Origin: Bradymonadia bacterium
Lineage (GTDB): Bacteria; Myxococcota_A; Bradymonadia; UBA7976; UBA1532
Reading direction: 5' to 3'
DNA: 61,084 nucleotides
NCBI GenBank assembly: GCA_046290225.1
Contig: JBKAGE010000058.1
Location: forward strand, 1-61,084
Below the pieces are notes generated by a model that made no database searches, was not told where the DNA came from, and saw nothing but the letters and a program-made list of their open reading frames with translations. The position numbers were made by a program, and so were the translations under genes. Of the stretch, positions 8,671 through 25,767 are shown one piece after another. Within the stretch, counting starts at the first letter, position 1. Every line of letters begins with the position of its first letter.

Positions 8671-9444
8671 TCAGGCCGCCTGGCGTTTCTTCAGATTGTA
8701 GGCCCGGGTCAGCTCCGCCACTGTGTCCAGATCGGCACGATCCGTCTCCATGGGCAGCCGCTCCATCACCCAGCGGGTGCGGACGAGATCCTCGGGTGTG
8801 TCCACGGCGAGGCTTACGCCTTTGTAGCGCTCTGCAGGGCAGGAGACGTTGTGGATGCGGAAGCGCAACGGGTGCCGGTAGAAGTGGGCCGTCACGTGCT
8901 CTCGATCAGCGTCGGTGATGTTCGGATCGTCGAGGGCCCTAGCCAGGGCCGCGGTGCTGACGATCTCCACGCTTGCCCCTGCGGGGAAGCTGCGGGGCAT
9001 CACGTTGGTGGTGACGTCGAGATCGAGGGCCTCGTGCAGTTTCAGCAAGGCGCTGGTGAGCTGGGCGTTGAAGAAGGGGCTGTCGCCGCACACCCGCACA
9101 AAGCGCTCGAAGCCGAAGGTGATGGCGCAGTCGAGGCAGCGCCGGGCCACGTCATCGGCGGAGCCGCGGAACACCGGGATGTCTTCTGAGCGGGCGAGGC
9201 AGGCGATGGGCTCGTCGATGCTGCGGGTCGATGTGGCCAGCACGATTTGGGGGGTGGCGCCACCCTCGACCTCGATGTGTTTGACCCGATCGAAGACGTG
9301 ACCCAGCAGCGGCCTGGGCCCGATGGGGGCCAGGGCCTTGCCCGGCAGTCGACGAGAGTCGAGCCGGGCCAGGACGATCACTCCAGTGGTACTCGCTGAA
9401 GCATCGACCGTGTTGTCTTGCAGAGCAGCCTTGCCCTCGGCCAT
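8671..9444 (-). CDS. SpsF-like cytidylyltransferase (CMP-sugar synthetase family)
   Basis: ARLDSRRLPGKAL, FRGSADDV, VRVCGDSPF, REHVT and LAVDTPEDL motifs. Confidence 0.88.
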   Translation of the reverse strand: MAEGKAALQDNTVDASASTTGVIVLARLDSRRLPGKALAPIGPRPLLGHVFDRVKHIEVEGGATPQIVLATSTRSIDEPIACLARSEDIPVFRGSADDVARRCLDCAITFGFERFVRVCGDSPFFNAQLTSALLKLHEALDLDVTTNVMPRSFPAGASVEIVSTAALARALDDPNITDADREHVTAHFYRHPLRFRIHNVSCPAERYKGVSLAVDTPEDLVRTRWVMERLPMETDRADLDTVAELTRAYNLKKRQAA

Positions 9445-9451
9445 ACGCCGA

Positions 9452-10537
9452 TCAGCCTTTCTGAGCCTGCCTCCACCCCTCGATGTACCACTCGCAATAA
9501 CGTCGGTAGCCCTGGCTCAAGGGCCACTGTGGCACGAAGCCCAGCTGGGCTCGGGCACGATCGATCGACAACGTGCCGCGCACCGGGCGGCTGTTGTCCC
9601 AGGGGTGCACTTCAATCTGTACCTCAGGGACGAGATCTTTCACCACCTCGGCCAGGGTTTTGATCGGCTGCGCCGCCCCGTAGGTCAAGTTGAAGATGCC
9701 GTGATCCTCAGGGCCGCGATGCAGCGCCAGGGCCCGAGTGATGCCGTCGGCGAGATCGGCCACGTAGGTGAAGTCGAGACGCCCCTCGCCGCCGCCGTCG
9801 AGGCGCAGGGCCTTGCCGAGCAGCGCGTTCTCGATGAACAGCTGGCTCACCCGGCGGCTGACGCAGCGCTCGCCGTAGAGGGCGCTGGGGCGGATGATGG
9901 TGGTGCCCAGGCCGTACTGATCGCCATAGGTCTGAAGCAACTTCTCGCCCATGAACTTGGCGTTTGCGTAGATGCCCCGAGGCCTCAGCGGAGAGTCCTC
10001 GTTGACCTCGGATCCTTCGAAGTCGCCGTACACCGTGCTCGAGCTCATGAGCATCACCTGGCTCGTGGTGCTGCTGCGTCGGGCGAGCTCGAGGGTGTTG
10101 CGCAAACTGATGAGCTGCAGGTCGAAGCACACGCCAGGGGTCTTCTTGGCCTGCACCGCGCTGCTGATGGCGGCGAGGTGCACCACCTTGGTGGGCTGGA
10201 ACTGATCGAACCGGTCGCTCAGCGGGCGCTCGTAGCAGGCGTCGACGTTCTCCAGGCGCACCCCCGCCTCTCGCAGCAGCTCGAGGCGGCTGAGCAGGCT
10301 GTTCCGGTACATGCGCCGGGCGATGGGGTGACGGGTGTCGTCGAACTCGTTGGTCACCGCGTGGTTCACCCCGAGGTGGTCGACGACCATGACCTCGGCG
10401 CCCTTGCTGCGCAGTGACAGCGCCACATGGTGGCCGATGAACCCGGCGCCGCCGACGAGGAGCACACGCTGCCCCTGCAGGCCCGAGGCGATGTGGGCGT
10501 CGGTGATGGGTGCTTCAGTGGTGTGGGTCGCGCTCAT
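9452..10537 (-). CDS. NAD-dependent epimerase/dehydratase (extended SDR)
   Basis: GGAGFIG, HLAA, SSSTVYG, YANAK (YxxxK) and LDFTYVAD. Confidence 0.92.
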   Translation of the reverse strand: MSATHTTEAPITDAHIASGLQGQRVLLVGGAGFIGHHVALSLRSKGAEVMVVDHLGVNHAVTNEFDDTRHPIARRMYRNSLLSRLELLREAGVRLENVDACYERPLSDRFDQFQPTKVVHLAAISSAVQAKKTPGVCFDLQLISLRNTLELARRSSTTSQVMLMSSSTVYGDFEGSEVNEDSPLRPRGIYANAKFMGEKLLQTYGDQYGLGTTIIRPSALYGERCVSRRVSQLFIENALLGKALRLDGGGEGRLDFTYVADLADGITRALALHRGPEDHGIFNLTYGAAQPIKTLAEVVKDLVPEVQIEVHPWDNSRPVRGTLSIDRARAQLGFVPQWPLSQGYRRYCEWYIEGWRQAQKG

Positions 10538-10667
10538 GATGCATGCCTCCCCGAATGGCTCGCCGGGTGCTCGTCGCTGGGAAACGGCCTGTATAGATGT
10601 GAGACTTGAGAAAAAATAGAAGATCTATCGCGCAAAGGTGCTGACCTTGAGATCACAGGCCTCGACA

Positions 10668-11867
10668 TCACTGACCTCCTTCTGCATGCGCTTCTCGGAT
10701 CGCCGACGCCAGGGCGTGGCCGATCCGCTCCGGATCCCCCTCGGCGAGGTGGGGGGCCACTGGCAATGAGATGGTCTGGGCCGAGATCCATTCAGAAACG
10801 GGGAAATCTCCGGGCTGGTAGCCATAGCGCTCGCGGTAGTAGCTCATCAGCGGGACCGGCCGCGGGTAGTGCAGGCTGCTGCCGATGCCCTTGCCCTTGA
10901 GACGGGCCACGAGATCGTCTCGATCGAGGCCTCCGCGTCGATCGGGATCCCGATCGAGGATGGCGTTGATGCAGTAATGCGAGCTCGCCGAAGGGCCCTT
11001 GATGCGCTCGAAGACCGTGATCTCGGGGATGGTGCTGAGTACCCCCTTGAGCTGTGCATAGTTCCGGGCCCGGATGGCCTGATGCTCGTCGAGGCGGCCG
11101 AGCTGGACCAGCCCCACGGCGGCCTCGACCTCGCTCATACGGTAGTTGTAGCCGAGCACGTTGACGTCATAGACCCCGGGCTTGCCCCGCTTGCCCACGG
11201 GCTTGTCGTAGCCGAAGGCGCGGCGTTGAGTCACCGCCTTCGCCAGCTCGGGATCGTTGGTGGTCACCATGCCCCCCTCGATGCTGGTCATGTGCTTGAC
11301 GGGATAGAACGAGAAGCACCCCGCCTTGGCCAGGGCGCCGGCCTTTCGGGTGCCGTAGGTGGCGTCGATGGCCAGGGCGCAGTCTTCCACGATGAAGGCC
11401 CCCGCCTGATCGGCGATGGCCTGGAGCGCCTCCATCTGGCAGGGTAAACCGAGGTAGTGCACCACCATGATGGCCTTGGTCCGCGGGGTCACCGCCCGGG
11501 CCACCTGCTCCGGATCGATGTTTCCGGTGTCGGGCTCCACGTCGACGAAGACAGGCCTGGCGCCGCAGTACTCCACGGCGTGACCTGTGGCCACGTGGGT
11601 CATGGCGGGCACGATGACCTCGTCACCAGGGCCGACGCCCGAAGACAGCAGCACCAGATGCAAGCCTGCAGTGCACGACGACACCGCGATGGCGTGATCT
11701 ACGCCTACACGCTCGGCCATCTGCGCTTCGAAGGCTTTGGTCGAGGCCCCGTGCACGAGCATGTGCCCCTTCAACACCTGCACCACGGCATCAATCTCTG
11801 GATCGCCGATGATGGGGCGGCCAAAAGGGATCGGGCGGGTGGTCGGATCAAGATCGTTCTGGGCCAT
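10668..11867 (-). CDS. DegT/DnrJ/EryC1/StrS PLP-dependent sugar aminotransferase
   Basis: VSSCTAGLHL, GPGDEVIVP, IVEDCA, FSFYPVKHMTSIEGGM and GYNYRMSE. Confidence 0.93.
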   Translation of the reverse strand: MAQNDLDPTTRPIPFGRPIIGDPEIDAVVQVLKGHMLVHGASTKAFEAQMAERVGVDHAIAVSSCTAGLHLVLLSSGVGPGDEVIVPAMTHVATGHAVEYCGARPVFVDVEPDTGNIDPEQVARAVTPRTKAIMVVHYLGLPCQMEALQAIADQAGAFIVEDCALAIDATYGTRKAGALAKAGCFSFYPVKHMTSIEGGMVTTNDPELAKAVTQRRAFGYDKPVGKRGKPGVYDVNVLGYNYRMSEVEAAVGLVQLGRLDEHQAIRARNYAQLKGVLSTIPEITVFERIKGPSASSHYCINAILDRDPDRRGGLDRDDLVARLKGKGIGSSLHYPRPVPLMSYYRERYGYQPGDFPVSEWISAQTISLPVAPHLAEGDPERIGHALASAIREAHAEGGQ

Positions 11868-12337
11868 GTGGGGCACCTCTTGTCGTTCAAAGCTCAGCGC
11901 TCGGCGCTCAGGCGTACGTCGTCGGGTTCGCGGGGTCGAGGGCAGGGCGCACGACGCCCACAGCCTTCACCACGTCACCGGCGACCGCACGGGCCGGTGG
12001 CCCATGGTCGTTCGCCGGGGTGTCGTCGATCAACTTCCTCTGAGAGGTCCTGACAAAACGGCGGACTACGCTGTCTCATCAAGGCCTCTGATCGGTCACA
12101 ACAGAATGTGGGTCGTAGACCCCGCCAATACACACCTCGACCGCTGTGCGCCCTCACGCTCGGCGGCAGGTGTATGTGCTCTCATCTCTCGTGTCTAATG
12201 GACACCGGCGGTCCAGCCTCTATCTCAAAATCTTCTGCAGAGTTTCGCCGTGCCCCCCCGTCGAACTCTGGTACAACCCCCCTCGAGAGCCTGAAGACCG
12301 CCCCGAGCCGACGATCCATGCCCAGTGGAGCCCCCGC

Positions 12338-13864
12338 GTGAAGCACTTCGCCCTGCCCGTCATTTGTGGTGCCCTCTTTGCCTGTAGCCCCGGCGTGAGC
12401 CCGGAGTCGATGACCGCGCCGAAGATTGTGGGCGATGCCCCGAGCTGTCGGGGCGAGTCCCTCGACCTCAGCCCCGACGGCCGTTGGATCGCGGTGACGT
12501 GTCGCGACTTCTCCGCGTCGATCATCGAGGTGGATCCAGCGAAGCTCGACACGTTGGGCGCCATGACCTCGCTGCCGAAGGTGGGCAGCGGAGAGGGCAT
12601 CCGGTTCCACCCCTCGGGGGCCTTCGCGGCCTTGTCGGCCTATCGTGAGGCGGCCTGCCCACAGGGCAATGCCAACCCTCAATGTCAGAGCCCCTTCGGC
12701 AGCGAGGTGGTCATCTTGGGCTTCCCGCAGAGCGGCGCCCCGGCGAGCCTGAAGCCCGCGGTGATCGATCGCTGGCCCGTGGCACAGGGCGACACGAGCT
12801 GCCTTGCCGGCGAAGACGTCGCTTTCTCTGCCGACGGTCGCCGCCTCGCCGTGATCTGCAATCTGCCCAGTCAGGTCTTCGTCTTCGACGCTGACCCTGC
12901 TTCGGAAGGCTTTGGGCAGGTGCTCCACCGGGTCGACGTACCTGCGGGTGACGGGCGCACCGGTTGGCTCGACGAGGTGGTGATCAACGCCGATGGCAGC
13001 CGCATCTACATCTCCGAGCTCGATGGTGAGCAGGTGAAGTCTGGTGTGGTGCAGGTGGTCGATGGTGCCGCTGGCAAGCTGAAGACGCCGATCAAGGCCC
13101 CCCACATGCTCGTGGGGTTGCACCTCGATCCTTCGGGATCACACCTCGTGAGCACGGCGTGGCAGGTGGGCGCCGCCCGCATCGATCTCGCCAAGCCCGC
13201 TGCAGAGGACGGCATCTTGATGCTGCGCTACGACGGTGGGGGCTTCAGCTACGATCTCACCACAGGCTCGGCCCCTGGAGGTCGCTATGGCTATGCCGTG
13301 ACCCAGTACCCCGCCCGGCTCGATGTGTACGACTTCGACACCCGTAAGCGCGGGAGCGTGGCGTTGCCCGACGTGCGCTCACGACAGCCCACGGCGACGG
13401 TGCCCCGACGCGATGGCCAGCGGCTGTACGTGCAGCACGAGGTGGGCAAGGTCATCATCGTCGATCCGCAGTTGCCGGCTCCGGAGGCCTACGTGGCACA
13501 GTTCACCCTCGATGCACCGTGTCAGGGTGAGGCCAGCCTCTCGTGGTCGGCCCCTGGCGCCACGGCGGTGAAGATCAATGGGGCGGAGCAGAAGCCGGAG
13601 GGCGCTCAGGTGGTCATGAGTGAGAAGACCCGGCGCCATACCCTCGAAGCCACCTTCCCTCAGGGCAAGGTGATCACCTCGACGGTGCAGTGGCGACCTG
13701 AGGCGAAGGTTTACAGTGGTGTGTGTGGGCAGGTGCCCACGCCTGTGGCGCCTGCACCCGCAGAGCCAGTGCCCGCAGAGCCAGTACCCACTGAGCAGCC
13801 CGTCAAGCAGCCTGCTCCAACGCCTCCTGGAGGCGCTGCACCACCCGCGCCCCCGACGCCCTGA
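12338..13864 (+). CDS. YVTN/WD40-like beta-propeller lipoprotein with Pro-rich tail
   Basis: Lipobox LFAC after a GTG start, repeated SPDGR/SADGR/NADGS blade motifs and a PAEPV repeat tail. Confidence 0.75.
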   Translation: MKHFALPVICGALFACSPGVSPESMTAPKIVGDAPSCRGESLDLSPDGRWIAVTCRDFSASIIEVDPAKLDTLGAMTSLPKVGSGEGIRFHPSGAFAALSAYREAACPQGNANPQCQSPFGSEVVILGFPQSGAPASLKPAVIDRWPVAQGDTSCLAGEDVAFSADGRRLAVICNLPSQVFVFDADPASEGFGQVLHRVDVPAGDGRTGWLDEVVINADGSRIYISELDGEQVKSGVVQVVDGAAGKLKTPIKAPHMLVGLHLDPSGSHLVSTAWQVGAARIDLAKPAAEDGILMLRYDGGGFSYDLTTGSAPGGRYGYAVTQYPARLDVYDFDTRKRGSVALPDVRSRQPTATVPRRDGQRLYVQHEVGKVIIVDPQLPAPEAYVAQFTLDAPCQGEASLSWSAPGATAVKINGAEQKPEGAQVVMSEKTRRHTLEATFPQGKVITSTVQWRPEAKVYSGVCGQVPTPVAPAPAEPVPAEPVPTEQPVKQPAPTPPGGAAPPAPPTP

Positions 13865-14921
13865 GCTGGCCCAGGGCCCACAAGGCGTCGAGATCCAGAT
13901 CCTGATCGTTGCGGCGCAGAATGTCGGCCCGATCGGCGACGAAGAGCACCTCGCCGAGGGGTTCGCTGTGCGTGGGGGCCGCGCGGCGGTGGTGGTTGGC
14001 CACTGCCCGGGCGATGTGCGGGCTCAGCTGCCACGACAAACACGCCATACCGCCCAGAGGCTCGTGCAGGGCGCCGAGGATCATGCGCACCCCCTCAGGG
14101 GTCAGCTTCAACTCTCGCCGCATCGAGCGACGCAGCTCAGCCACATGGTCGAAGATCACCAGCTTGCCCACGTCGTGGAGCAGCGCCAGCGTAAAGGCGT
14201 GCTCGGGGTGGGCGTTGAAGGCCGGGGCGATGTAGCGAGCCAGGGGGGCCGCGTGCTGCATGTGATCCCAGAGCGCCTCTGGCATGCCCTGGAATGGGCG
14301 CCCGGGGGTACACAGCAACCCGCCCACCACATGATGCAGGACCACATTGCTCACCCCCGTGCGACCGATGCGAGTCACGGCGTCGGAGATGGAGGAGATG
14401 GGTTGCGTCGTGGCGTAGTAACTCGAGTTCGCGGTCCTCAGAAGCGACTGAGCCAGGGCGGGATCTTTCCTGATTTGTGCCACGAGGGCTTCGGTGTCGC
14501 TCTCGGCATCCTGAGTGAGCGCCAGGGCTTCGCGGGCTGCCTGGGGTAGCTGAGGCACGAGGGCTCGGGGTGGCCGGGCCAGCGCATCGAGAACAGCTGC
14601 GAAGTCGGCGCCGCCTGCTGCCAGGCGCCCCGGGTCGCGCAACCAGTCGAAACATGCGTCGAGGTGAGCCCTCAGGGCCGCGCCCAACGTATCGTCAGTG
14701 GCGTCGATGACCTGAGACGGGATGGGGTGGGTGCTCTCGGCCCCTGGAGGCGGGACAGATGACGATGTCTGCTCAGCAGGTGGCCGAGACATGGGTGACG
14801 TGGTGACCCTGTATGACTCAGACTGCGCTGGAGCGGGCAGAGTCGCCACATCTTCGTCGTCCAGATCGAACCGGTTGCGACCCAGCAAACGGCCCACCAG
14901 GGCCCAGAGCTTGCTCAACAT
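13803..14921 (-). CDS. HDOD domain protein
   Basis: DPALAQSLLRTANSSYY, SISDAVTRIG, ALLHDVGKLV and AVANHH. The GGAG RBS and start overlap the upstream gene. Confidence 0.85.
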   Translation of the reverse strand: MLSKLWALVGRLLGRNRFDLDDEDVATLPAPAQSESYRVTTSPMSRPPAEQTSSSVPPPGAESTHPIPSQVIDATDDTLGAALRAHLDACFDWLRDPGRLAAGGADFAAVLDALARPPRALVPQLPQAAREALALTQDAESDTEALVAQIRKDPALAQSLLRTANSSYYATTQPISSISDAVTRIGRTGVSNVVLHHVVGGLLCTPGRPFQGMPEALWDHMQHAAPLARYIAPAFNAHPEHAFTLALLHDVGKLVIFDHVAELRRSMRRELKLTPEGVRMILGALHEPLGGMACLSWQLSPHIARAVANHHRRAAPTHSEPLGEVLFVADRADILRRNDQDLDLDALWALGQLRASGARVVQRLQEALEQAA

Positions 14922-15724
14922 GTCATCTCCTCGACCACCTGAAGGCGCCAGCCTCGAGCCGAGCAGGCCTGCTGGAGCGCACCGTCGGGGTCTGCATCGA
15001 ACAAGAGGCCACCTGTGAGGGTTGTCCCCCAGGCGGGCGGGGCGTTCAGGGCGTCGCGCCAGAAGCGGGCACGCCCTGTGGTCGCCTGAGGTGACGAGCT
15101 GGAGGCGTCGAGCTGCTCTGCGCCCACCCCGGGGCCCTTCAGGTGCAACTCGCCAGCACCCCACAACGTCGGCAGCACCTCACCGATGGCGCCGAGGGGG
15201 GTCCACCACGGATGCTGGCTGAGCACCCGAATGCCAGGGGCAGGGCACAGGCCAGAACTCAAACGCTCGGCAAAGGCCATCAGCGTCTGCTCGTCGAAGA
15301 CAGAGTTCAGCGTGGGCGCATTGGTCGGTGACACGAAGCCCCAGCGGGCCTCCGCATCGGACAGTGGCGCCTCAGCGTCAGCAACCACCAAAGACAATCC
15401 AGTGTCGGCCACTCGGGCGTGGGGTCTCAGAGCATCGATGAGAGCCTGGTCAGTCTCGGGGGGCAGTGGGATGAAGCACACCCCCGCCCGGAAGCACCCC
15501 ACCATGGCTTGTACCCAGCGGATGCCAGGCGCCATGGGGGCCACGACGCGGTGGCCCGGGCCCAAACCCAGAGCGCGGGCCGACTCACGAAACACCTTGC
15601 CCCCCGTCCACAGCGTGGGCGCCGGGCAGATGTGCTCCGGCTCACCTGCGCGGTGCATCAGGACCATGGGCTCGGGGTGATGGGGCCAGCGGGCGCGAAA
15701 CGTCGCTGGAAGAGGGGAGAGCAT
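14915..15724 (-). CDS. Degenerate AMP-binding (acyl-CoA ligase-like) N-terminal domain protein, directly downstream of pyp
   Basis: LGLGPGHRVV...W..AMVGCFRAGVCFIPL resembles the ANL-family N-terminal region. It is only 269 aa, with no TSGxTGxPK loop and no C-terminal subdomain. Confidence 0.6.
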   Translation of the reverse strand: MLSPLPATFRARWPHHPEPMVLMHRAGEPEHICPAPTLWTGGKVFRESARALGLGPGHRVVAPMAPGIRWVQAMVGCFRAGVCFIPLPPETDQALIDALRPHARVADTGLSLVVADAEAPLSDAEARWGFVSPTNAPTLNSVFDEQTLMAFAERLSSGLCPAPGIRVLSQHPWWTPLGAIGEVLPTLWGAGELHLKGPGVGAEQLDASSSSPQATTGRARFWRDALNAPPAWGTTLTGGLLFDADPDGALQQACSARGWRLQVVEEMTC

Positions 15725-15731
15725 CAGCGAC

Positions 15732-16097
15732 TCACTTCTTGGTGACGAAGACCCAGTTGCTGTTGTCGCTGCCGCGGAACAGGCGGAGCACCACGTTGGT
15801 GGGCTTCATCTTGTAGGTGAAGGTGTAGTTGAACTCGTGGTCCATCTCCCCCTTCGACACACCATTCTTGAAGCGGCCGAAGACCAGGCGGTTGTTGGTG
15901 CAGGGGGCCACCTGGGTGAAGAAGTTCTTCCCCTCAGCGGTGCTGGTGGCAACGCCGGCCATCTCCGACTCCCAGCGGTTGTAGAGCTCCACCGTGCCGT
16001 CGTCGGCGAGCTTCACCACCCCGTGGGGTGTGCTGTCGGCCTGGGAGCGGGTCATGGTGCTGAGGCTGGCGAGGGTGCTGTTGTTCACGAAAGACAT
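15732..16097 (-). CDS. pyp: Photoactive yellow protein
   Basis: 121-aa PAS protein with YNxxE, GKNFFxxVAPCT, YTFxYxM and WVFV. It aligns without gaps to H. halophila PYP over residues 42-100, with Y42, E46, C69 and M100 conserved. Confidence 0.93.
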   Translation of the reverse strand: MSFVNNSTLASLSTMTRSQADSTPHGVVKLADDGTVELYNRWESEMAGVATSTAEGKNFFTQVAPCTNNRLVFGRFKNGVSKGEMDHEFNYTFTYKMKPTNVVLRLFRGSDNSNWVFVTKK

Positions 16098-16172
16098 GGC
16101 GCTTCTCCTGGTGTCGCTCGGGCGACTGTCAGTTTGAGTCTCGAAAGTGGTGCCCCGAGGGGCGATGGTGCT

Positions 16173-16580
16173 TCAGGCAGCCTCGGACACCGGTGCGAGC
16201 AGGAACTCGCCGATGCGGGCAGTGTCTTCGTCGGTGATGAAAGGTGAAATGCGCTCGATCAGCTGGCTGAGCGTGCTCGACCGCATCTGCAACTCCGGAG
16301 AGCACTCGCCGCGACGGAACATCTGATAATTCAGCTGGGTGTTGAGCATCTGCCAGTGGCAGCGCAGTTCGATGTATCGCAGCGCGATGGCGAAGATCAG
16401 CTCCTCGTCGTCATCCACCTCGATGAGATGATCGACGAATTGATCACGCAGCCCGCTCGCCCAGGCATACACGCGCTGGCGGTCTTGGGCTTCAGCATCT
16501 TCCCAGTGATCGAGGGTCTCGTGCCATACCTGCTCCAGGCTCTCTGCCTTGATGGCGGCGATGACCTTGTGGGTGCTCAT
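16173..16580 (-). CDS. Hypothetical helical protein upstream of pyp
   Basis: 135 aa, strong AAGGAG RBS, host-like codon usage, co-oriented with pyp. Confidence 0.75.
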   Translation of the reverse strand: MSTHKVIAAIKAESLEQVWHETLDHWEDAEAQDRQRVYAWASGLRDQFVDHLIEVDDDEELIFAIALRYIELRCHWQMLNTQLNYQMFRRGECSPELQMRSSTLSQLIERISPFITDEDTARIGEFLLAPVSEAA

Positions 16581-16668
16581 GTCACTTCTCCTTCATGGCC
16601 GGACTCTGCATCCGGAAAACCTGTATCCACAGGCAACACACGCCACCTGCAGCTGTGATGTTGTGTAC

Positions 16669-17382
16669 TCAGTCCGCGAAGACCGCGTTGTCCACGATCG
16701 ATTCGAGCACTTTGTGCATGCGCCCCTTGAAGCGCTCCACCGCCGCCCTGGACTTGGCCAGCTCTTCTTCGAGGGCCATCTTCTCGTCGATGAGTGCCAC
16801 CACCTGGGCGTTGAGCGACTCCACCATGAGAGCGCTTTCGTCGCTGCTGCCAGCGGGCGCCGCTGCGACCTTCTCGTCGTAGAGCGCGACCAGCTGAGCC
16901 TCGAGGCTCTCCACTGTGAGCTGCAGCGCGTCGTGACCTTCGCTCTGGTGGTCGTAGAGATCGCAGAGTTGAGCGTTCAAGCTGTCGATGGTGACGAGCA
17001 GATCGTTGCTCTCGGCCGCGTTGTCAGCGCTTTGCTCTGCACGCTCTGCATAGAGGTCGCACAGCTGGGCGTTCAGGTTGTCGATGGTGGCGTGCGCTTG
17101 TGCGAGTGCATCCCCAGGCGCCTCGCCGGCGACCTTCTCGTCGTAGAGCGCCACGAGCTGGGCATTGAGGCCCTCGATGGTCTCCTCGAGGGACTGAATG
17201 GTGTCGGCTCCGCGGGCGATCTTGGCGATGTAGATGTCGTCATGATCAACAGCGTCGAAGAGGCCTGACTGCTCACGCTCCTCGTAGAGGCTGACGAGCT
17301 GTGCCTCCAGGCTGGCCACCATTTCCTGCAGGTCGCCCACTGAGGCGCTCACACCTGTGCGTCCTGAGCTGAGGATGCGCAT
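16669..17382 (-). CDS. Acidic coiled-coil protein with six L-[EN]-A-Q-[LV]-xx-L-[YI]-x-[EH] repeats
   Basis: GAGGGAG RBS and six visible repeats. Two of them share a 23-nt identical DNA segment (16865-16887 and 17129-17151). Confidence 0.78.
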   Translation of the reverse strand: MRILSSGRTGVSASVGDLQEMVASLEAQLVSLYEEREQSGLFDAVDHDDIYIAKIARGADTIQSLEETIEGLNAQLVALYDEKVAGEAPGDALAQAHATIDNLNAQLCDLYAERAEQSADNAAESNDLLVTIDSLNAQLCDLYDHQSEGHDALQLTVESLEAQLVALYDEKVAAAPAGSSDESALMVESLNAQVVALIDEKMALEEELAKSRAAVERFKGRMHKVLESIVDNAVFAD

Positions 17383-17646
17383 GACTGTTCTCCCTCTATC
17401 CGTTGATGGTGGCATGTAAAGCCCGAGCACGCTCCCGCGTCGTGCTGATGTGTTCCACGAGACCTCGAACCGCCACCCTGCTCAGTCTCTGTGTCATGTG
17501 AGATGGTTTCGGACAGGGATGAGTGGGGCTTGAATGGTATTTGTAGAAAAATCAGTTGTTTGCGTATGGCTGCATTCTGGTTTTTGAATGTGTTTCAGGT
17601 GCTCAAGAGAGCTGTGTCATCCGCCGTTGACCGGAACGAAGAGCAG

Positions 17647-19176
17647 ATGAAATACGCGACAGTAAAAAGGGCAGGTCCAGTGATTGATAGAAACCATCAA
17701 ATCAGGTTGTTGGGCGTAGCTCTGGCGCCTCTGGCCCTCGGTGGTGTCGCCTGGATGTCAGGCCATCTCGAGGGGCTGTGGATGCTGCCGGTGTGCCTCA
17801 CCACTGTGTGGTCATTCTACGAGATTCGGGCTCTGAAGAGGGCAGACACGAGAGGCGTGAATGAACAACAAATGACCCTGGTGACCCAAAATGAGTCCGG
17901 TGGAGGGTCGGACAGCGAGTTCATGAATCGTCGGGCGGCCGAAGAGCAATTTGAAGCGCATCGACGGGAGATCCTCCACATGGGCACGTTGCTCGAAGAG
18001 AACGTGCTGGCGTTGGTGGAGCAGGTCGATTTCTCGGCGAACATGGTGGAAGACGCCTCGATCACCACCACCGAGTGCACCGAGGCCTCCAGTGATCAGG
18101 TCGAGGCTGCTCAAACCGCAGCTTCAGATACCCACGAGCACATGGGGCAGATGATCGAGGCCATCCAGTACGTATCGACTTCGATCGTCGACATCACCGC
18201 CGAGGTGGGGCGTTCCGAGGTCATCACCCACGAGGCCGTCGAGGCTGCGCGCAAGACCGATGACATCGTCACGGGTCTCACGGGTGCGGCCGAGCGCATT
18301 GGTGATGTGGTGATCATGATCCAACAGGTGGCGCGGCAGACGAACCTGCTGGCGCTCAATGCCACCATCGAGGCGCAGCGGGCCGGTGAAGCAGGGAAGG
18401 GTTTCACCGTGGTGGCGGAAGAGGTCAAGCGGCTGGCCCACCAGACCGCCGCTGCTGCAGGAGAGATCGCTGCACAAATCGACGAAATGCAGGGGGCCAC
18501 GGGTGAAGCGGTGGGGGCGATTCAGGGCATCAGCGACTTGATCAGGCGCATCGACGAGGTGATGTCTTCGGTGAAGTCCTCTCTTGAGCAGCAAGAGGAG
18601 GCTACAGGGCGCATCAACGGCCACATTCAGCAGACCACCCACGGCAGCACGCGCATCAAGACGCAGGTGGCCGAGATCCAGGCTGCCCTCGACGCCACCA
18701 TGGACAAGGCCGCGGAGAGCCTCTGCGCCACCTCGATTCTCAAGACCTCGTCACAACAACTCAGCCAGGAAGTGAGCAATTTTCTCGGGCATCTGCGCCG
18801 CACTCGGGCGGGCAATCGCCGTCGTCATCCGCGGGCCAATCTTCATATTCCCGTGGAGGCCAGGGTGGGCTCGAAGGCCATCGACAGTCAGGTGGTCGAC
18901 ATCTCCCGCGTGGGCATCGGCCTGGCGCCCGTGCCCGAGCTCACGGTGGGCGAGCGTCTGACCCTGTCGTTGCCCGAGGTGGGTGAAGTGTCGGGGCGCA
19001 TTGTCTGGTGCGGGAAGTCTCGTGTGGGCATCGACTTTTATCGCATTTGCGCCGAGGACAGCATCAACGCGCTGGTGCAGCAGTTCAATGGTGAGTGGGA
19101 GGTCGAAGAGCAGGAAGGCGCCAACATCGACGAGACCGGCCATGTCATCGAGCAGGCTGCAAGCGCTCCGGCGTGA
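17647..19176 (+). CDS. Methyl-accepting chemotaxis protein with C-terminal PilZ domain
   Basis: Two adjacent N-terminal hydrophobic helices, hairpin tip [34 protein letters not shown], and PilZ motifs RRRHPR and DISRVG. Start codon uncertain. Confidence 0.88.
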
Positions 19177-20752
19177 GCTCTGCCCCGGCGCTGAGCATGT
19201 CGATGACCTGCCTGTAAATGCGAGCATCTTCGGCTCGCTTCTCCGGTGAGCGTTTTCTGCACGAGGCCAGCGGCAGCTTCAGCCGCATGTTGTCGGCGAG
19301 CTGATCTGCGTGCCGAGCGAGGAAGGCCCAATAGAGCGGGGTGATGGGGCAGGTTTTCTTGGGATGAAAACGGCAGCCCTCGCAGTAATCACTCATTTTG
19401 TTGATGTAGGCCGCGCCAGAGACATAGGGCTTGGTGGTCATCACGTCGCCTGCGGCGAAGGTGCCCATGCCCAGCACATTGGGCTCCACCACCCAGTCAT
19501 AAGCGTCGGTGTAGGCCACCCAGAACCAGTCGGTGAGCGCTCTCGGTGACACGTCGAGCAAGGTGGCCAGGTTGCTGAGCACCATCAACCGGGTGATGTG
19601 GTGGCTGTAGCCCTCTGTCCATACGCTCTCCACCACAGTGTCGAGGCAAGCGAGGCCTGAGGGCGCACCACTCCAGAAGGCAGGTGGCAGCGGGTGTGCC
19701 GCGCCGAGGTGGCTCGGATCGGCTTTTGGATGATGTCCATCGAGCAGATGGCGAAACCCGTCCGTGGCGCGGTGCACATGGCGTACGAACTCCCGCCAGC
19801 CCAGGATTTGCCGAATGAACCCCTCTTTGCTGCCGAGGGACACATCCATCGCGTGCACATCGTCGATCACACGCTGAGGCAACAGCCGGTGCAGGTTGAG
19901 CAGCATCGAGATCCGGGTGTGGAACAGATTGCGCTCATGGCGTGACATCGCATCTTCGTATGGCCCGAAGTGGGTCATGCACGACTCACGGGCCCACCGC
20001 CACAATGTCTCGGCATCTGCCGCAGTGGCCGGCAACATGCTCAAATCGAGCTGGCCCGGATGATCGGCGAACTGCTGCTCTACGAGATCGCCCACCTCAC
20101 GGGTGATGGTGTCGGGCGCGAAGCGGGGCAGCGCAGGCGCTGGGGGATCTCCCGGCCACACCTTGCGGTTGTCGCCGTCGAAGCTGAAGCGTCCGCCTTC
20201 GGGCTTGCCTCGAGCATCCATCAAGATGCCGGTGCGACGGCGCACTGCCCGATAGAAAGCATCCATGCGCCAGGGCGGCGCTGAGCCCACTGAGCCGGTG
20301 AAGTCTTCCACGGTGGTGAGCCAGCCCTCGTGGGGTCTGATCCGCAGGGCACCTTCATCGACGAGGGGCTGTAGATCCACCCGAAGCTCTCGCTCGGCGG
20401 CCTCCATCATGGTCAGCGTGCCGAGCTCGGCGCACTGCGGTCGCAGCGCCTCGGCATAGTCACCACGAGACACGACGTGGCGCACTGCTACGCCACGGCG
20501 GACCTGCTCCAGGGCAAAGTGCCTCAGGTTGCTCAGCACCAGGGCGAGCTTCTGTTTGTGGTAGGGGCGCCTGGCGGCCTTCGCCGGGCATTCCACGAGC
20601 ACGATGCCGAGGGTTTCCGGAGGATGTCGGGAAAGCGGGCCGAGCTGATCAGTGAGCTGGTCATACGGCACGAAGAGCCAGCGTCGCCCTTGCTGTTCGA
20701 CTGGCTGGTGCTGAGCGAGGGCGGTGGCAAACGTGAGATCATGTGCAGCCAT
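19145..20752 (-). CDS. FeS-type bacterial cryptochrome/(6-4) photolyase (PhrB/CryB-like)
   Basis: [19 protein letters not shown]...[42 protein letters not shown] and [20 protein letters not shown]...CP, giving four Fe-S cysteines with GLACLD. Confidence 0.92.
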
Positions 20753-20889: not shown

Positions 20890-22110
20890 ATGCGCACTGA
20901 GAAGATCGAGTTCACCGGCGCCCTGGGAGAGACGCTCGCGGGTCGTCTGGATCGACCAGAAGGCACGCCGCGGGCATACGCCCTCTTCGCCCACTGCTTC
21001 ACGTGCACAAAAGACATCTTCGCCGCGAGCCGCATTGCCCGCTCGCTCACTGAGCACGGCGTCGCAGTCCTGCGCTTTGATTTCACCGGTTTGGGCTCGA
21101 GCGAGGGAGAGTTTGCCAACACCAATTTCAGCTCCAACGTGGGCGATCTGGTGGCGGCTGCGAACTACATGCGTGAGCATCTTGAGGCCCCAGAGGTCCT
21201 CGTAGGTCACTCCCTCGGGGGGGCAGCGGTGCTCGCTGCGTCACATCAGGTGCCCGAGGTTCGGGCTGTGGCCACGGTGGGGGCGCCGTATGATCCCGGT
21301 CACGTGAGCCACCTGTTCGCCGATCACCTCGAAGACATCGAGCGTGAGGGCGTGGCCGAGGTGACCCTGGCGGGTCGTCCCTTCACGATTCAGAAGCAGT
21401 TCATCGACGACATCCAGAGCCAGAAGCAGGACGCCTGCATCTCCAACCTCAAGCGGGCCCTGCTGGTGTTGCACTCGCCGGTGGACAACATCGTGGGCAT
21501 CGAGAACGCCAGCCTGATCTTTCAGGCGGCGAAGCACCCCAAGAGCTTCATCAGCCTCGATGATGCCGACCACCTTCTGAGCAAAAAAGCCGACGTCGAG
21601 TATGCCGCAGCGGTGATCTCTGCCTGGGCGGCGCGGTTCATCTCCCGCCAAGAGGCGCCGATGCCCGTGCTGTCGCCACAGCCCCACGGCAAGGTGGTCA
21701 TCGAAGAGACCACCAACGGCAAGTTTCAGAACGCCGTGGCCATGGGCCAGCACCGGGCCATCGCCGACGAGCCCCCAGAAGTGGGCGGCGACGACACGGG
21801 CCCGAGCCCCTACGAGTATCTGCTGGCGTCACTCGGCGCATGTACCAGCATGACGCTGCGCATGTACGCCGAGCGCAAGGGCTGGCCTCTGGAGAAGGTG
21901 AGAGTCGCCCTGAGCCATCAGAAGATTCACGCCCGAGACTGCGAGACCTGCGAGACCGAGAAGGGCAAGGTGGATCAGATCGAGCGCACGATCACGATCT
22001 ACGGCGATCTCGACGACGAGCAGCGGGCCCGCCTGATGCAGATCGCCGACATGTGCCCGGTGCACCGCACGTTGCACAGCGAGATCAACGAGATCACCCG
22101 AGAAGGCTGA
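20890..22110 (+). CDS. Bifunctional alpha/beta hydrolase / OsmC family protein
   Basis: AHCFTC, GHSLGG and ADHLL, then OsmC motifs ADEP...GPSPYEYLLASLGACTSMT and CPVHRTL. Confidence 0.93.
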   Translation: MRTEKIEFTGALGETLAGRLDRPEGTPRAYALFAHCFTCTKDIFAASRIARSLTEHGVAVLRFDFTGLGSSEGEFANTNFSSNVGDLVAAANYMREHLEAPEVLVGHSLGGAAVLAASHQVPEVRAVATVGAPYDPGHVSHLFADHLEDIEREGVAEVTLAGRPFTIQKQFIDDIQSQKQDACISNLKRALLVLHSPVDNIVGIENASLIFQAAKHPKSFISLDDADHLLSKKADVEYAAAVISAWAARFISRQEAPMPVLSPQPHGKVVIEETTNGKFQNAVAMGQHRAIADEPPEVGGDDTGPSPYEYLLASLGACTSMTLRMYAERKGWPLEKVRVALSHQKIHARDCETCETEKGKVDQIERTITIYGDLDDEQRARLMQIADMCPVHRTLHSEINEITREG

Positions 22111-22527: not shown

Positions 22528-25500
22528 ATGGGTTTTCGAGTGGTGCCCTTCGGGGCTGTGGGCCTGGCCCTCGCACTGAGTGTCTGGGGCTGTGACAGCG
22601 AAGAGGTCGACTTTGGCCCTGGCGGTGCTGGCGGTCAGCCCTCGGCGGGTGGGGTCCCCATGGGTGGCGAACCTGTGGGCGGCATGTCCGAGGGCGGTGC
22701 CGGCGGCGAGCCCATGGGCGGTACAGGTGGTGCCGTGGGCGGTGAAGGCGGGATCCCCGGTGAGCCTGGCACTGGCGGCTTCGCTGGTGGCACAGGCGGT
22801 GAAGACGTCGGCGTACCCCCAGTGGTGGACTGCAGCGCCTTCGAGTATCGGGGTCAGGTCTTCGACTGTGATGCCCTCGATCGTTGTACTGAGCAGGACA
22901 TCCTCTATCGCACCGCATGTTGTCAGTGTGATCCCGAGCTGTGCGCGCCTGATCCTGACTGCTCTGCGCCCGATGACGCCGGCTTGCCACCACCTGAGGT
23001 CGACGGTGGCGCTCCACCGCCTCCAGTGGAGATCGTCGAGAGCTGTATGGAGTGCCACAACGGCTCCGACGACAACGACTACGCAGGCAACGGCATCTTG
23101 AACCCCCATCCGTTCCCCGGGGCTGCGAACATCCTGTGCAGCCACTGCCACGGCGGAAACCCACGGGGCCAGGGGAAGCTCGACAGCCACGTGAACGCCC
23201 CACCGGAGATCGGTGGTCGCGAGCAGTGGATCAACAACCCCAAGTCGTACTTCAACCGCCTCACCCTCAGCGGCCTCGACAAGCTCGAGCCCGCAGAGTG
23301 GCCCACTCATCACGATCCGGACGCCACCTGGAACAACCTCGACTACATCCAGTTCCTCAACCCTGGCGATCTACGCGTGGTGACTCAGGGACGGGGCTGC
23401 GGCGCTGCGGGTTGCCATGGGGAGCAACACGGTGAGTGGGTGGCCCGCTCGGCCATCGGCACCACGGTGGGCTTCTTCTCGTCCACCCGTTTCACTGTGG
23501 GGCTCGAGAACAGCTACCCCGAGCGCCGCGGGCGCCAGAACGACGCCGACACCCTCGCTGATCACGCGCCCCGCGATGTGTCGAACCCTGACTATGACCC
23601 CAACAATCGCCTCATTGGCGAGGTGCCCTCTCTCCGCGAGCAAGAAGAGGTGGCGCAATACGATGGCCCCATGCGGGACAACGCAATCTACGATTCGGAC
23701 ACGCTGCCCAACCACGTGATCAACGAGAACCAGGATCGCGCCCGGCCGAACCGGGTGCGCACCGACAGCCCTCTCGACACCCTCATCACCGAGTCGATCT
23801 CCATCGGCTGCGGTGACTGTCACCTCTACAGTGCCGGGGCCAACAACCGCTACGCCGACTTCCGCTCATCGGGCTGCACGGCCTGCCACATGGAGTACAG
23901 CGCCGACGGCCGCAGCCGCAGCTCCGACCCTCACGTGAATAAGCGCGAGCCCATCAACCCTGACGCCATCGCCGCCCCGGAGCGTCCCCACGTGGAGCGT
24001 CATCAAATCAGGAACGTGGCCAAGGTGCTGCCCAACGGGGCCTTCGTACGGGGCATCAGTGATCGGGCCTGCGTGGGCTGCCACCAGGGCTCAAACCGCA
24101 CGGTGCTGCAATACTGGGGCATTCGCCTCGACCAGAACGCCGACGTGGTGAACGACTTCCAGTACCCGGCGAACCCTCAGAACTTCGCCACCACCGAGAA
24201 CGACACCCGTCTCTACGACCCCGCGGTGAACAACAACACCTTCAACGGCCGCAACTTCAACCAGCACCTGCTCACCGAAGATTACGACGGCGACAACCGC
24301 GACGACACGCCCCCTGACGTGCACTACGCCGCGGGCATGGGCTGTATCGACTGCCACGGCAGCCGCGATCTACATGGTGGCACTGAGGGCGACCCCACAG
24401 GGGGCAAGATCAGGAGCCGCAACGATCAATACTCGATGATCTCGTGCGAGAGCTGCCACGGCACCCTCGAGGGCTACGCCGAGACGGTGGAGTGCTTCAC
24501 CTACGACAATCGCCAGGCCCGCTGCGCGACAGACAAAGCCGGCAACCCGTTGCGCAACGTCACGGTGGGGCCCAACGACACCTACACATTGATCAGCCGC
24601 CTCGACGGCAACCGGCTCTATGTGCCGCAGACCCGTGACGTGGTGGTGCAGAATCAGAACAAGCGCCACCCCATCACCCAGCAGCTCATCTACAGCCCCA
24701 AGGGCTCGTACGCCATGGGCCGCGCCGACGGCAGCGCCCTCACGGGCATCGGCCCTCAGCAGGCCGACCCCCTGAAGTTCACCCCGGGCTTCACCCATAT
24801 GGACAAGCTCGAGTGCGTGAGCTGCCACAGCACCTGGACGAACAACTGCATCGGCTGCCACATCAAGTCGCAGTACAACGCTGATCCGGGTCAGTACTTC
24901 TTCTCGAACATCACCGGCGAGCGAATCTTGCTCAACCTGACCAACGCCGACTTCACGTATCAGTCCCCAGTGATGATGTACCTGGGGGTGAACAGCAACG
25001 GGAAGATCGACCAGGTACAGCCCATGGACAAGCTGTTCTACCGCCACGAGGATCGCAACGGGGTGGAGTCGCAGGTCTTCGCCTTCGGTGATCGCCTCGG
25101 TGAGGGCAACAACCCCTTCAAGTTCGGCGCGAACGCCTTCCCGGCGCTCAGTCACAACCAGACATCGAACCACTCGGTCCGCGGCAAGGTCACCGACACT
25201 GAAGAGGGCCCCCGCTACTGCGTGTCGTGTCACCTGACGCAGAACGCCATCGACACCTTCGGCGACGAGTACGCAGAGTTCCGCGATACGTACTACGCCA
25301 ACGACTTCGCCAACCTGGACTTCGACCTGCTCGCGGAGCACATCGGTCAGAACCCCGGTAACCAGCTCGATTCGCCCTTCTGGGTGCACATGGTGGCGGG
25401 CCTGGGCACGGGCCTGTTCCTCTTCGACGAGACGGGTTGCCCGGTGAACCCCCTGGATCCGAACGCGAACCGCCAGTACTGCCCCGACGGCGCCCCTGCG

Positions 25501-25767
25501 GACAACTTCGACGCCAACGACGTGGTCTACGACACGGATCGCCTGGTGGAGATCAACGGGGCGTCGAACGTCTCGAGCGCCCACCCGATCATGGTGGACA
25601 ACCCACCGGTGCAACGCTTCGGGGCGTCGAACCCCGAGATGAGTGGGCCGCTGCCGGGTCAGATGATCCAGAAGCTGGCTGATCCGAACACGGGCTTGGT
25701 CCTCGACTCGTGGATCGACGCCGACGGCAACGCTCAGGGCGCCGCGGACAACTACATCAATCAGTGA
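22528..25767 (+). CDS. Large multiheme cytochrome c lipoprotein
   Basis: Lipobox VWGC, Gly-rich linker, 10 CxxCH motifs and one CX4CH (CGAAGCH). Confidence 0.88.
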   Translation: MGFRVVPFGAVGLALALSVWGCDSEEVDFGPGGAGGQPSAGGVPMGGEPVGGMSEGGAGGEPMGGTGGAVGGEGGIPGEPGTGGFAGGTGGEDVGVPPVVDCSAFEYRGQVFDCDALDRCTEQDILYRTACCQCDPELCAPDPDCSAPDDAGLPPPEVDGGAPPPPVEIVESCMECHNGSDDNDYAGNGILNPHPFPGAANILCSHCHGGNPRGQGKLDSHVNAPPEIGGREQWINNPKSYFNRLTLSGLDKLEPAEWPTHHDPDATWNNLDYIQFLNPGDLRVVTQGRGCGAAGCHGEQHGEWVARSAIGTTVGFFSSTRFTVGLENSYPERRGRQNDADTLADHAPRDVSNPDYDPNNRLIGEVPSLREQEEVAQYDGPMRDNAIYDSDTLPNHVINENQDRARPNRVRTDSPLDTLITESISIGCGDCHLYSAGANNRYADFRSSGCTACHMEYSADGRSRSSDPHVNKREPINPDAIAAPERPHVERHQIRNVAKVLPNGAFVRGISDRACVGCHQGSNRTVLQYWGIRLDQNADVVNDFQYPANPQNFATTENDTRLYDPAVNNNTFNGRNFNQHLLTEDYDGDNRDDTPPDVHYAAGMGCIDCHGSRDLHGGTEGDPTGGKIRSRNDQYSMISCESCHGTLEGYAETVECFTYDNRQARCATDKAGNPLRNVTVGPNDTYTLISRLDGNRLYVPQTRDVVVQNQNKRHPITQQLIYSPKGSYAMGRADGSALTGIGPQQADPLKFTPGFTHMDKLECVSCHSTWTNNCIGCHIKSQYNADPGQYFFSNITGERILLNLTNADFTYQSPVMMYLGVNSNGKIDQVQPMDKLFYRHEDRNGVESQVFAFGDRLGEGNNPFKFGANAFPALSHNQTSNHSVRGKVTDTEEGPRYCVSCHLTQNAIDTFGDEYAEFRDTYYANDFANLDFDLLAEHIGQNPGNQLDSPFWVHMVAGLGTGLFLFDETGCPVNPLDPNANRQYCPDGAPADNFDANDVVYDTDRLVEINGASNVSSAHPIMVDNPPVQRFGASNPEMSGPLPGQMIQKLADPNTGLVLDSWIDADGNAQGAADNYINQ

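Follow-up and report, generated by a model that had tools for sequence, protein, structure and literature searches.

A conserved gene module around a clade-B-type photoactive yellow protein, with two candidate partner families and a seemingly reduced copy in a Bradymonadia bacterium

The pyp gene cluster

A 61,084-nucleotide contig of a Bradymonadia bacterium (JBKAGE010000058.1, assembly GCA_046290225.1), the whole of which is referred to here as the window, contains a gene for a photoactive yellow protein (PYP) within a cluster of five genes. An initial annotation had joined these five and two neighbouring genes into a single blue-light signalling locus. All seven open reading frames (ORFs) are present as it described, and conservation as a system is confined to the five-gene pyp unit. 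In the order of reading the unit encodes a repeat protein (rep), a small helical protein (h), PYP, a ligase-like protein and an HDOD protein:

17382-16669, minus strand: rep, an acidic helical repeat protein (237 aa counted from the ATG)
16580-16173, minus strand: h, an all-helical domain (135 aa)
16097-15732, minus strand: PYP, apparently of clade-B type (121 aa)
15724-14915, minus strand: ligase-like protein, a truncated member of the p-coumarate-CoA ligase family (269 aa)
14921-13803, minus strand: HDOD protein (372 aa; PF08668, 126.6 bits)

The genes lie head to tail with spacings of 88, 75, 7 and -7 nt, and a GGAG-type ribosome site is found upstream of four of the five starts, the exception being that of the ligase-like gene.

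Conservation of the module

With an alignment of rep as the query, 22 genome loci were recovered from Gemmatimonadota, Beta- and Alphaproteobacteria, Planctomycetota and Oligoflexia (loci, genomes and proteins of the comparison carry the prefixes L, G and P). In 19 of these loci pyp adjoins rep, 19 contain h and 11 contain HDOD. Two of the three without an adjacent pyp run out at the end of a contig, and the third, L016, has no pyp. An alignment of PYP as the query led to 499 metagenome loci, of which the best 80 were retained; rep was found in 68 of these 80, h in 67 and at least one of the two in 78. After removal of L008, L014 and L016, which have no pyp, the 99 pyp-bearing loci formed 40 groups at 90% PYP identity. 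Many of the grouped loci are short; rep was found in 37 groups, in each case within 600 nt of pyp, h in 28, the ligase family in 21, a lyase in 20 and a protein in which h is joined to a degenerate CheA (h-pseudo-CheA) in 17. HDOD was present in seven groups, any methyl-accepting chemotaxis protein (MCP) in seven, and PilZ and photolyase in none. Flanks of 4 kb or more on both sides of pyp are available for 20 groups, and there the counts were 19 for rep, 19 for h, 19 for the ligase, 17 for the lyase, 15 for pseudo-CheA, five for HDOD and six for MCP. The suggestion that two proteins of unknown type accompany PYP is borne out by this gene-neighbourhood search, in which both keep their place next to pyp in several phyla.

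A less biased test is provided by surveys of 763 genomes (301 + 301 + 161), in which h was found in 2/301 genomes of the host phylum, 5/301 of Gemmatimonadota and 1/161 of Planctomycetota. In all eight h-positive genomes a PYP that scores above 190 bits lies no more than about 1 kb from h, and the same is true of all five that are left when the three genomes at the centre of the surveys are set aside. None of the 43 genomes whose PYP-like matches are all weaker (141 bits or less) has h. Supplement 2 of PMC12826048 lists hypothetical proteins of 209 and 134 aa at the pyp loci of Rhodobacteraceae gas-vesicle clusters. No such gas-vesicle locus was retrieved among 361 alphaproteobacterial genomes, and the eight other PYP-like loci in these genomes have no credible rep or h within 1.5 kb. 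At a separate alphaproteobacterial locus (L117; G934:C4:65427-68795) three unnamed genes, related to one another and with a common ITLRRxGxxPxxFxG-like start, flank pyp; the trio is possibly PBP-like.

The photoactive yellow protein

All three chromophore residues are kept in the PYP of the window, where Tyr39, Glu43 and Cys66 correspond by alignment to Tyr42, Glu46 and Cys69 of Halorhodospira halophila. The protein matches TIGR02373 with E=5.6e-29 and 100.8 bits, under the model cut-off of 143.05 bits, and its Pfam PAS match is also below cut-off. The TIGR02373 score does not exclude it from the PYP family, since the clade-B members in Data Set S3 of PMC9664959 likewise fall short. It is 62-65% identical to PYPs of Gemmatimonadales whose neighbourhood matches the clade-B row of the same data set, and as judged by these matching neighbourhoods, from which the label is taken, it is a clade-B PYP. 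In a tree, to which named reference sequences are external, a long branch parts the window-type PYPs from five alphaproteobacterial PYPs.

With the window PYP as the query, 27 genomes of the same family yielded no close match and two weak matches within long ORFs. Since no close PYP was found in these relatives, the module was probably acquired horizontally by the host. The GC content at third codon positions (GC3) of pyp is 0.94, and a plasmid search returned distant PYPs only.

The repeat protein

The rep protein of the window has six copies of the motif [SGN]L[EN]AQ[LV]xxL[YI]x[EH][RKQ] (LEAQLxxLYxE-type) and contains 46 acidic against 15 basic residues. Besides the window copy 36 homologues were found, among which the number of motif copies varies. 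As a control for specificity the rep profile was run against 92,180 ORFs of the host and matched one, as did the h profile. No Pfam family was found above cut-off for rep, which gave weak coiled-coil matches only, and Atlas searches with rep and h returned no usable named family. In seven of 19 long PYP proteins the rep motif is fused N-terminal to PYP. An AlphaFold2 model of a natural rep-PYP fusion (pTM 0.66, with pLDDT values of 64-71 in the repeat hairpin) was uninformative on docking. We consider rep likely to be a multivalent scaffold belonging to an unnamed family.

Two large proteins also combine these elements: P0192 (989 aa) carries at least 10 repeat motifs and ends in a Cys-bearing PYP, and P0189 (689 aa) has one repeat motif and two PYP-like domains, one of them without the Cys.

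The h domain and the h-pseudo-CheA proteins

The h family comprises 237 representatives at 50% identity. The AlphaFold2 model of h is an all-helical bundle (pLDDT 95.8), and Trp76, Asn80 and Tyr85 are near-invariant over 289 domains. No conserved His was found in these domains, in which the highest frequency of His in any column is 18%, and no match to Pfam was obtained, including none to Hpt. The identification of h as an Hpt domain (the P1 domain of CheA) was rejected for these two reasons, the want of a conserved phosphoacceptor His and of an Hpt match. In fold h is a helical bundle, with no clear match by Foldseek or VIA-align; Foldseek gave no match of any kind at E<=0.001 and the top VIA score (Z 8.5) is generic for helical bundles. 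A sequence search of the PDB with h returned only designed or chance helical proteins.

A CheA-like tail is joined to h in nine of 149 representatives, with h mostly at the N-terminus, which is the usual place of Hpt, and fusions of this kind are also encoded inside the pyp loci of relatives. The CheA-like proteins fused to h match CheW, HATPase_c and H-kinase_dim, that is, they have P3-P4-P5 homology, and a tail profile built from 42 locus pseudo-CheAs matches the true CheA of the host (E=4.7e-10). The N-box and the G2 box, which we take to be the ATP-binding motifs, are kept in none of the 42 tails and the lid region is deleted. The h-fused CheA of relatives can be read from these losses as catalytically dead. 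No pseudo-CheA was found among the 92,180 host ORFs, in which one h, one rep and one pyp are present.

The h domain occurs together with the rep profile in seven proteins, one of which (P0070) is likely a frameshifted read. The three kinds of fusion, rep-PYP, h-rep and h-CheA, link the three proteins functionally, without showing which binds which. Prediction of a PYP-h complex gave scores of 0.02, 0.39 and 0.04 against a mark of 0.32, which is no answer, and has not been used as evidence. We consider h likely to be a docking or adapter domain on the PYP side; it represents an unnamed family.

Other arrangements of h were also seen. Three proteins encoded directly after pyp (L092:1424-2851, L102:7417-8814 and L091:7407-8834) have three tandem h domains each, and some loci have up to four h-containing genes. 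In P0180 and P0124 h is carried on larger CheA-like proteins; in the first of these, h is at the C-terminus and the protein's own Hpt and kinase motifs are intact.

The ligase remnant, chromophore supply and the HDOD protein

The ligase-like protein scores 24.5 bits against Pfam AMP-binding, under the cut-off of 29.9. It lacks both the C-terminal half of the family and the phosphate loop, presumably TSGTTG, a motif seen in L073, L022 and L098, and has 269 aa as against about 460-530 aa in full-length relatives. It was rejected as an active enzyme on account of these two absences and is a shortened remnant of the family of p-coumarate-CoA ligases linked to pyp. Similar short ligases are found in L029, L034, L018/L020, the L001 group and G160. 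The short ligases without the P-loop, including those of the window, L029, L034, L018 and L140, have a conserved IC.APSLW.GG start and stand beside pyp in loci without a lyase. At L098:3561-6152 a CoA ligase and an aromatic lyase are fused in one ORF, which follows pyp and h.

The only aromatic lyase of the host is HutH, which passes the hutH cut-off, has the SH and E motifs and adjoins HutU; no tyrosine ammonia-lyase (TAL) was found in this 99.4% complete genome. HutH is also the only aromatic lyase of G160. Most full-length pyp-linked lyases have a His-Leu (HL) motif, which we take to be the selectivity motif of TAL. With a ligase cut down to a remnant and with HutH as its sole aromatic lyase, the host has a doubtful supply of chromophore. 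The initial annotation had overlooked that the host is missing TAL and an intact pyp-linked ligase.

The HDOD protein of the window is 38-46% identical to the HDOD proteins of full-length pyp loci and 25-30% identical to its paralogues in the host, and since it is closer to the former it appears to have arrived with the module. The earlier inclusion of HDOD in the set holds to the extent that the gene travels with the module in some lineages; with its presence in only seven of the 40 groups it is better regarded as an accessory member and a candidate output.

Neighbouring genes and the host

The remaining features of the region lie upstream of the pyp unit:

17383-17646: divergent spacer (264 nt; 52% GC)
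17647-19176, plus strand: MCP-PilZ, with MCPsignal and PilZ above Pfam cut-offs
20752-19145, minus strand: FeS photolyase of the PhrB/CryB class, with PF04244 (DPRP) above cut-off

Two details of this layout had been described correctly: the divergent spacer is relatively AT-rich (52% GC as against 64% for the genome), and the 3' end of the MCP-PilZ gene overlaps that of the convergent photolyase gene, by 32 nt. No sigma-70 consensus was found in the 264-nt spacer, where 1.0 would be expected by chance. The MCP-PilZ protein has two short hydrophobic segments and a C-terminal PilZ domain with the motifs RRHPR and DISRVG (RxxxR, DxSxxG), and no sensor domain was detected in it by Pfam. Its bit score is 225 to host paralogues and at most 97 to any pyp-linked MCP, and a paralogue of the same architecture is encoded at G000:C82 in the host with no gene of the pyp module within 14 kb. 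The photolyase matches PhrB over its full length (E=7.6e-78), with the four cluster cysteines and the HH motif aligned (8ijy), and is by this similarity an FeS-type bacterial cryptochrome/(6-4) photolyase of the PhrB/CryB class. A photolyase is present in 18 of 40 related genomes, in relatives without the window-type PYP, and DNA-repair-type motifs are kept in the window copy. At 19 other photolyase loci, within flanks of about 1.5 kb, neither an MCP nor a module gene was found. The MCP-PilZ and photolyase genes were rejected as members of the module, as PilZ and photolyase are absent from all 40 groups, and are likely bystanders that adjoin it by chance.

Further genes of the window are recorded here for completeness. 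An alpha/beta hydrolase-OsmC fusion (20890-22110, plus strand) is divergent from the photolyase and does not neighbour it in the 19 related loci. At 22528-25767 (plus strand) lies a protein of 1079 aa that resembles multiheme cytochromes, with numerous CxxCH motifs and a weak Cytochrom_c3_2 match, and at 8671-11876 (minus strand) sugar-nucleotide genes for a DegT aminotransferase, an epimerase and a cytidylyltransferase. A beta-propeller protein (12146-13864, plus strand), the 3' end of which overlaps that of HDOD by 62 nt, has no relation to the pyp module as far as tested.

The host genome (8.6 Mb, 99.4% complete) contains 20 MYXO-CTERM matches, in agreement with the earlier description of the host as myxobacterium-like, as well as eight matches to the flagellin family, PilT and CheA/CheW genes. 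On its contigs C75 and C78 (G000) the host encodes MYXO-CTERM proteins and ATPases of type IV pili, alongside the eight flagellin matches, and judged from its MYXO-CTERM, pilus and flagellin genes the host is a flagellated myxobacterium-like organism.

A proposed mechanism and its alternatives

From the gene content, co-occurrence, fusions and catalytic-motif loss that are observed at these loci we infer a mechanism, in all its binding steps, its light dependence and its output, as follows. Light-activated PYP would bind h through the conserved Trp/Asn/Tyr face, and rep would gather several PYP-h complexes. In most relatives h is mounted on a dead CheA, with its dimerisation, vestigial ATPase and CheW-like domains, which would relay the signal into a chemoreceptor array. 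The host has a reduced copy in which the dead CheA and the TAL are missing and the ligase is truncated; its PYP would hence depend on scavenged p-coumarate and on some general CoA ligase. Output in the host would pass most likely to the co-inherited HDOD protein. We put the probability of a five-gene PYP module with h and rep as the dedicated partners of PYP, and with predicted array/HDOD signalling, at about one half. A bolder form can be offered tentatively, in which h is a dedicated PYP-docking domain that has taken the place of the phosphoacceptor domain of the dead CheA, allowing a soluble photoreceptor to enter arrays without an MCP of its own, and rep clusters the complexes. In this form a sub-lineage that includes the host, having given up chromophore synthesis, would use scavenged p-coumarate and so combine chemical with light sensing.

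A number of points weigh against the five-gene reading. The PYP alignment used for the metagenome loci (A4) was built from rep-linked loci and this biases the PYP-to-partner counts upward, as does the selection of the best 80 of 499 loci; in the genome surveys no more than about 13 candidates were scored for each genome, and related genomes are not independent. There are exceptions to the association: G1064/L034 combines a high-scoring PYP with rep and gave no match to h, in G426 PYP and h are present with no rep within 15 kb, and L073 has neither rep nor h. Neither of the two can be obligatory, since G1064 is without h and G426 without rep. The host has no pseudo-CheA, so that the array link has no direct application here, HDOD is found in only seven of 40 groups, and holo-PYP may not form in the host, nor in G160, where HutH is likewise the only lyase.

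The last point leads to a different reading, in which the host module is not a light sensor: apo-PYP and its partners might sense or capture p-coumarate-like acids from outside, such as those of prey or plant matter, or else the copy might be decaying after its transfer. The lack of TAL in a 99.4% complete genome, of the P-loop and C-terminal half in the ligase and of pseudo-CheA in the host all agree with this, as does the lack of TAL in G160. We nevertheless think it unlikely, as the five ORFs are all open, pyp has a GC3 of 0.94 and keeps its Cys, Tyr and Glu, and intact short ligases are found again in several lineages, which the PYP tree does not unite in a single clade. The weight of a missing TAL is also reduced by the report that TAL is found in just 5% of pyp operons (PMC12826048), and by the observation that lyase specificity is unreliable when read from sequence (PMC3992019). 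That rep and h serve PYP as maturation or stability factors, in chromophore loading or in holding the unfolded signalling state, and do not carry a signal, seems rather improbable. It would fit the company kept by pyp in the 20 long-flank groups, where ligase and lyase are found nearly as regularly as rep and h. Operons of the H. halophila type, however, are described in PMC12826048 as yielding holo-PYP with p-coumarate-CoA ligase (pCL) and TAL alone, and the fusion of h to CheA-like proteins, even as an appendage to intact CheA (P0180, P0124), points to signalling.

The model of the initial annotation, in which all seven genes formed one blue-light locus and PYP acted through the divergent MCP-PilZ protein on cyclic di-GMP (c-di-GMP) with the cryptochrome aiding, appears improbable in the light of the 40 groups, none of which has PilZ or photolyase. 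Membership of MCP-PilZ and of the cryptochrome has therefore been given up, and coupling of PYP to c-di-GMP is unsupported. The MCP is nearer to host paralogues, one of which has the same architecture at another place in the genome, than to pyp-linked MCPs, and the photolyase, with its DNA-repair-type motifs, occurs in relatives that have no window-type PYP. In favour of the seven-gene model, the MCP shares the 264-nt divergent spacer with the pyp unit and, as with the chemoreceptor that PMC9664959 proposes for clade B, no sensor domain was detected in it; flagellins, PilT and CheA are present in the host. Four groups without pseudo-CheA (4, 6, 16 and 20) have a co-oriented MCP in the cluster, which may substitute as an anchor, although the numbers are small and those MCPs are not orthologous. 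The chemosensory-array link that had been proposed survives in another form, through the h-domain pseudo-CheA of relatives and not through the MCP of the window.

Comparison with known systems

The PYP is a model photoreceptor, the signalling partners of which are called an open gap in the sections of PMC9664959 and PMC12826048 that deal with them, and Rc PBP is the only PYP partner found in the parts of the literature examined. Judged from its sequences and neighbourhoods the module described here is a real and conserved partner module of clade-B PYP, reduced in the host. It is apparently undescribed: no paper was found that describes the rep or h families or pseudo-CheA, in a search to which subscription papers were external. 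The earlier remark that the gene set was not recognised as a described system needs qualification in that its genes are listed, unnamed, in two published supplementary tables. As small, soluble and unnamed families that track one branch of PYP across several phyla, rep and h make the question of PYP output testable, and cultured carriers of the module are present in the published tables. If the proposal is correct, a pseudo-CheA with an input domain other than Hpt would be a new route by which signals enter chemosensory arrays, and PYP and h, as a compact pair dependent on light, could be used as an optogenetic switch.

The closest likeness is to the clade-B loci of Gemmatimonas phototrophica (WP_026849937) and Sphaerotilus natans, which as tabulated in Data Set S3 of PMC9664959 and supplement 2 of PMC12826048 match the window in their gene set: an unnamed gene, pyp, a further unnamed gene, HDOD, a CheW-like hypothetical and a lyase or ligase. 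A 185-aa protein of G. phototrophica (P0036) is a homologue of rep. In the tabulated material of PMC12826048 the genes of this organism are given as hypothetical and are not treated as families or partners, the recurrent members of pyp operons named there being GGDEF/EAL, kinases, pCL, TAL and BLUF; Data Set S3 of PMC9664959 gives the same genes as 'None', HDOD and CheW, likewise without treating them as families or partners. The G. phototrophica and S. natans loci differ from the window in the order of their genes, which here is rep-h-pyp, and in their CheW-like gene and lyase, neither of which the window has. The pyp-pcl-tal operon of H. halophila, as given in PMC12826048, resembles the window in that a gene of the ligase family follows one for a single-domain PYP that has Tyr42/Glu46/Cys69, and differs in that the window ligase is a remnant, the host genome is without TAL and two extra families precede pyp.

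For the genes beside the module the parallels are of another kind. Tlp1 of Azospirillum brasilense (PMC3604760) is, like the window MCP, a chemoreceptor with a C-terminal c-di-GMP-binding PilZ domain; it has no link to PYP, and the MCP-PilZ architecture is known and, according to that paper, common. The photolyase is similar over its full length, including the cluster cysteines, to the FeS-BCP (6-4) photolyases PhrB and CryB (PDB 4dja, 3zxs), with no evident difference and no link to pyp elsewhere.

A precedent for the proposed partners is Rc PBP (RCAP_rcc01067), the product of a small adjacent gene, for which light-dependent binding to PYP is reported in bioRxiv 2021.06.01.446672. Rc PBP has 142 aa and is predicted there to contain beta-sheets, whereas h is modelled as all-helical. 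The clade-B PYP of Leptospira, in the model put forward in PMC9664959, feeds the array in trans via a sensor-less chemoreceptor, and the window MCP is likewise without a detected sensor domain. At the loci studied here, in contrast to the Leptospira model, the recurrent component of the array is the h-pseudo-CheA (17 of 40 groups) and not an MCP (seven of 40).

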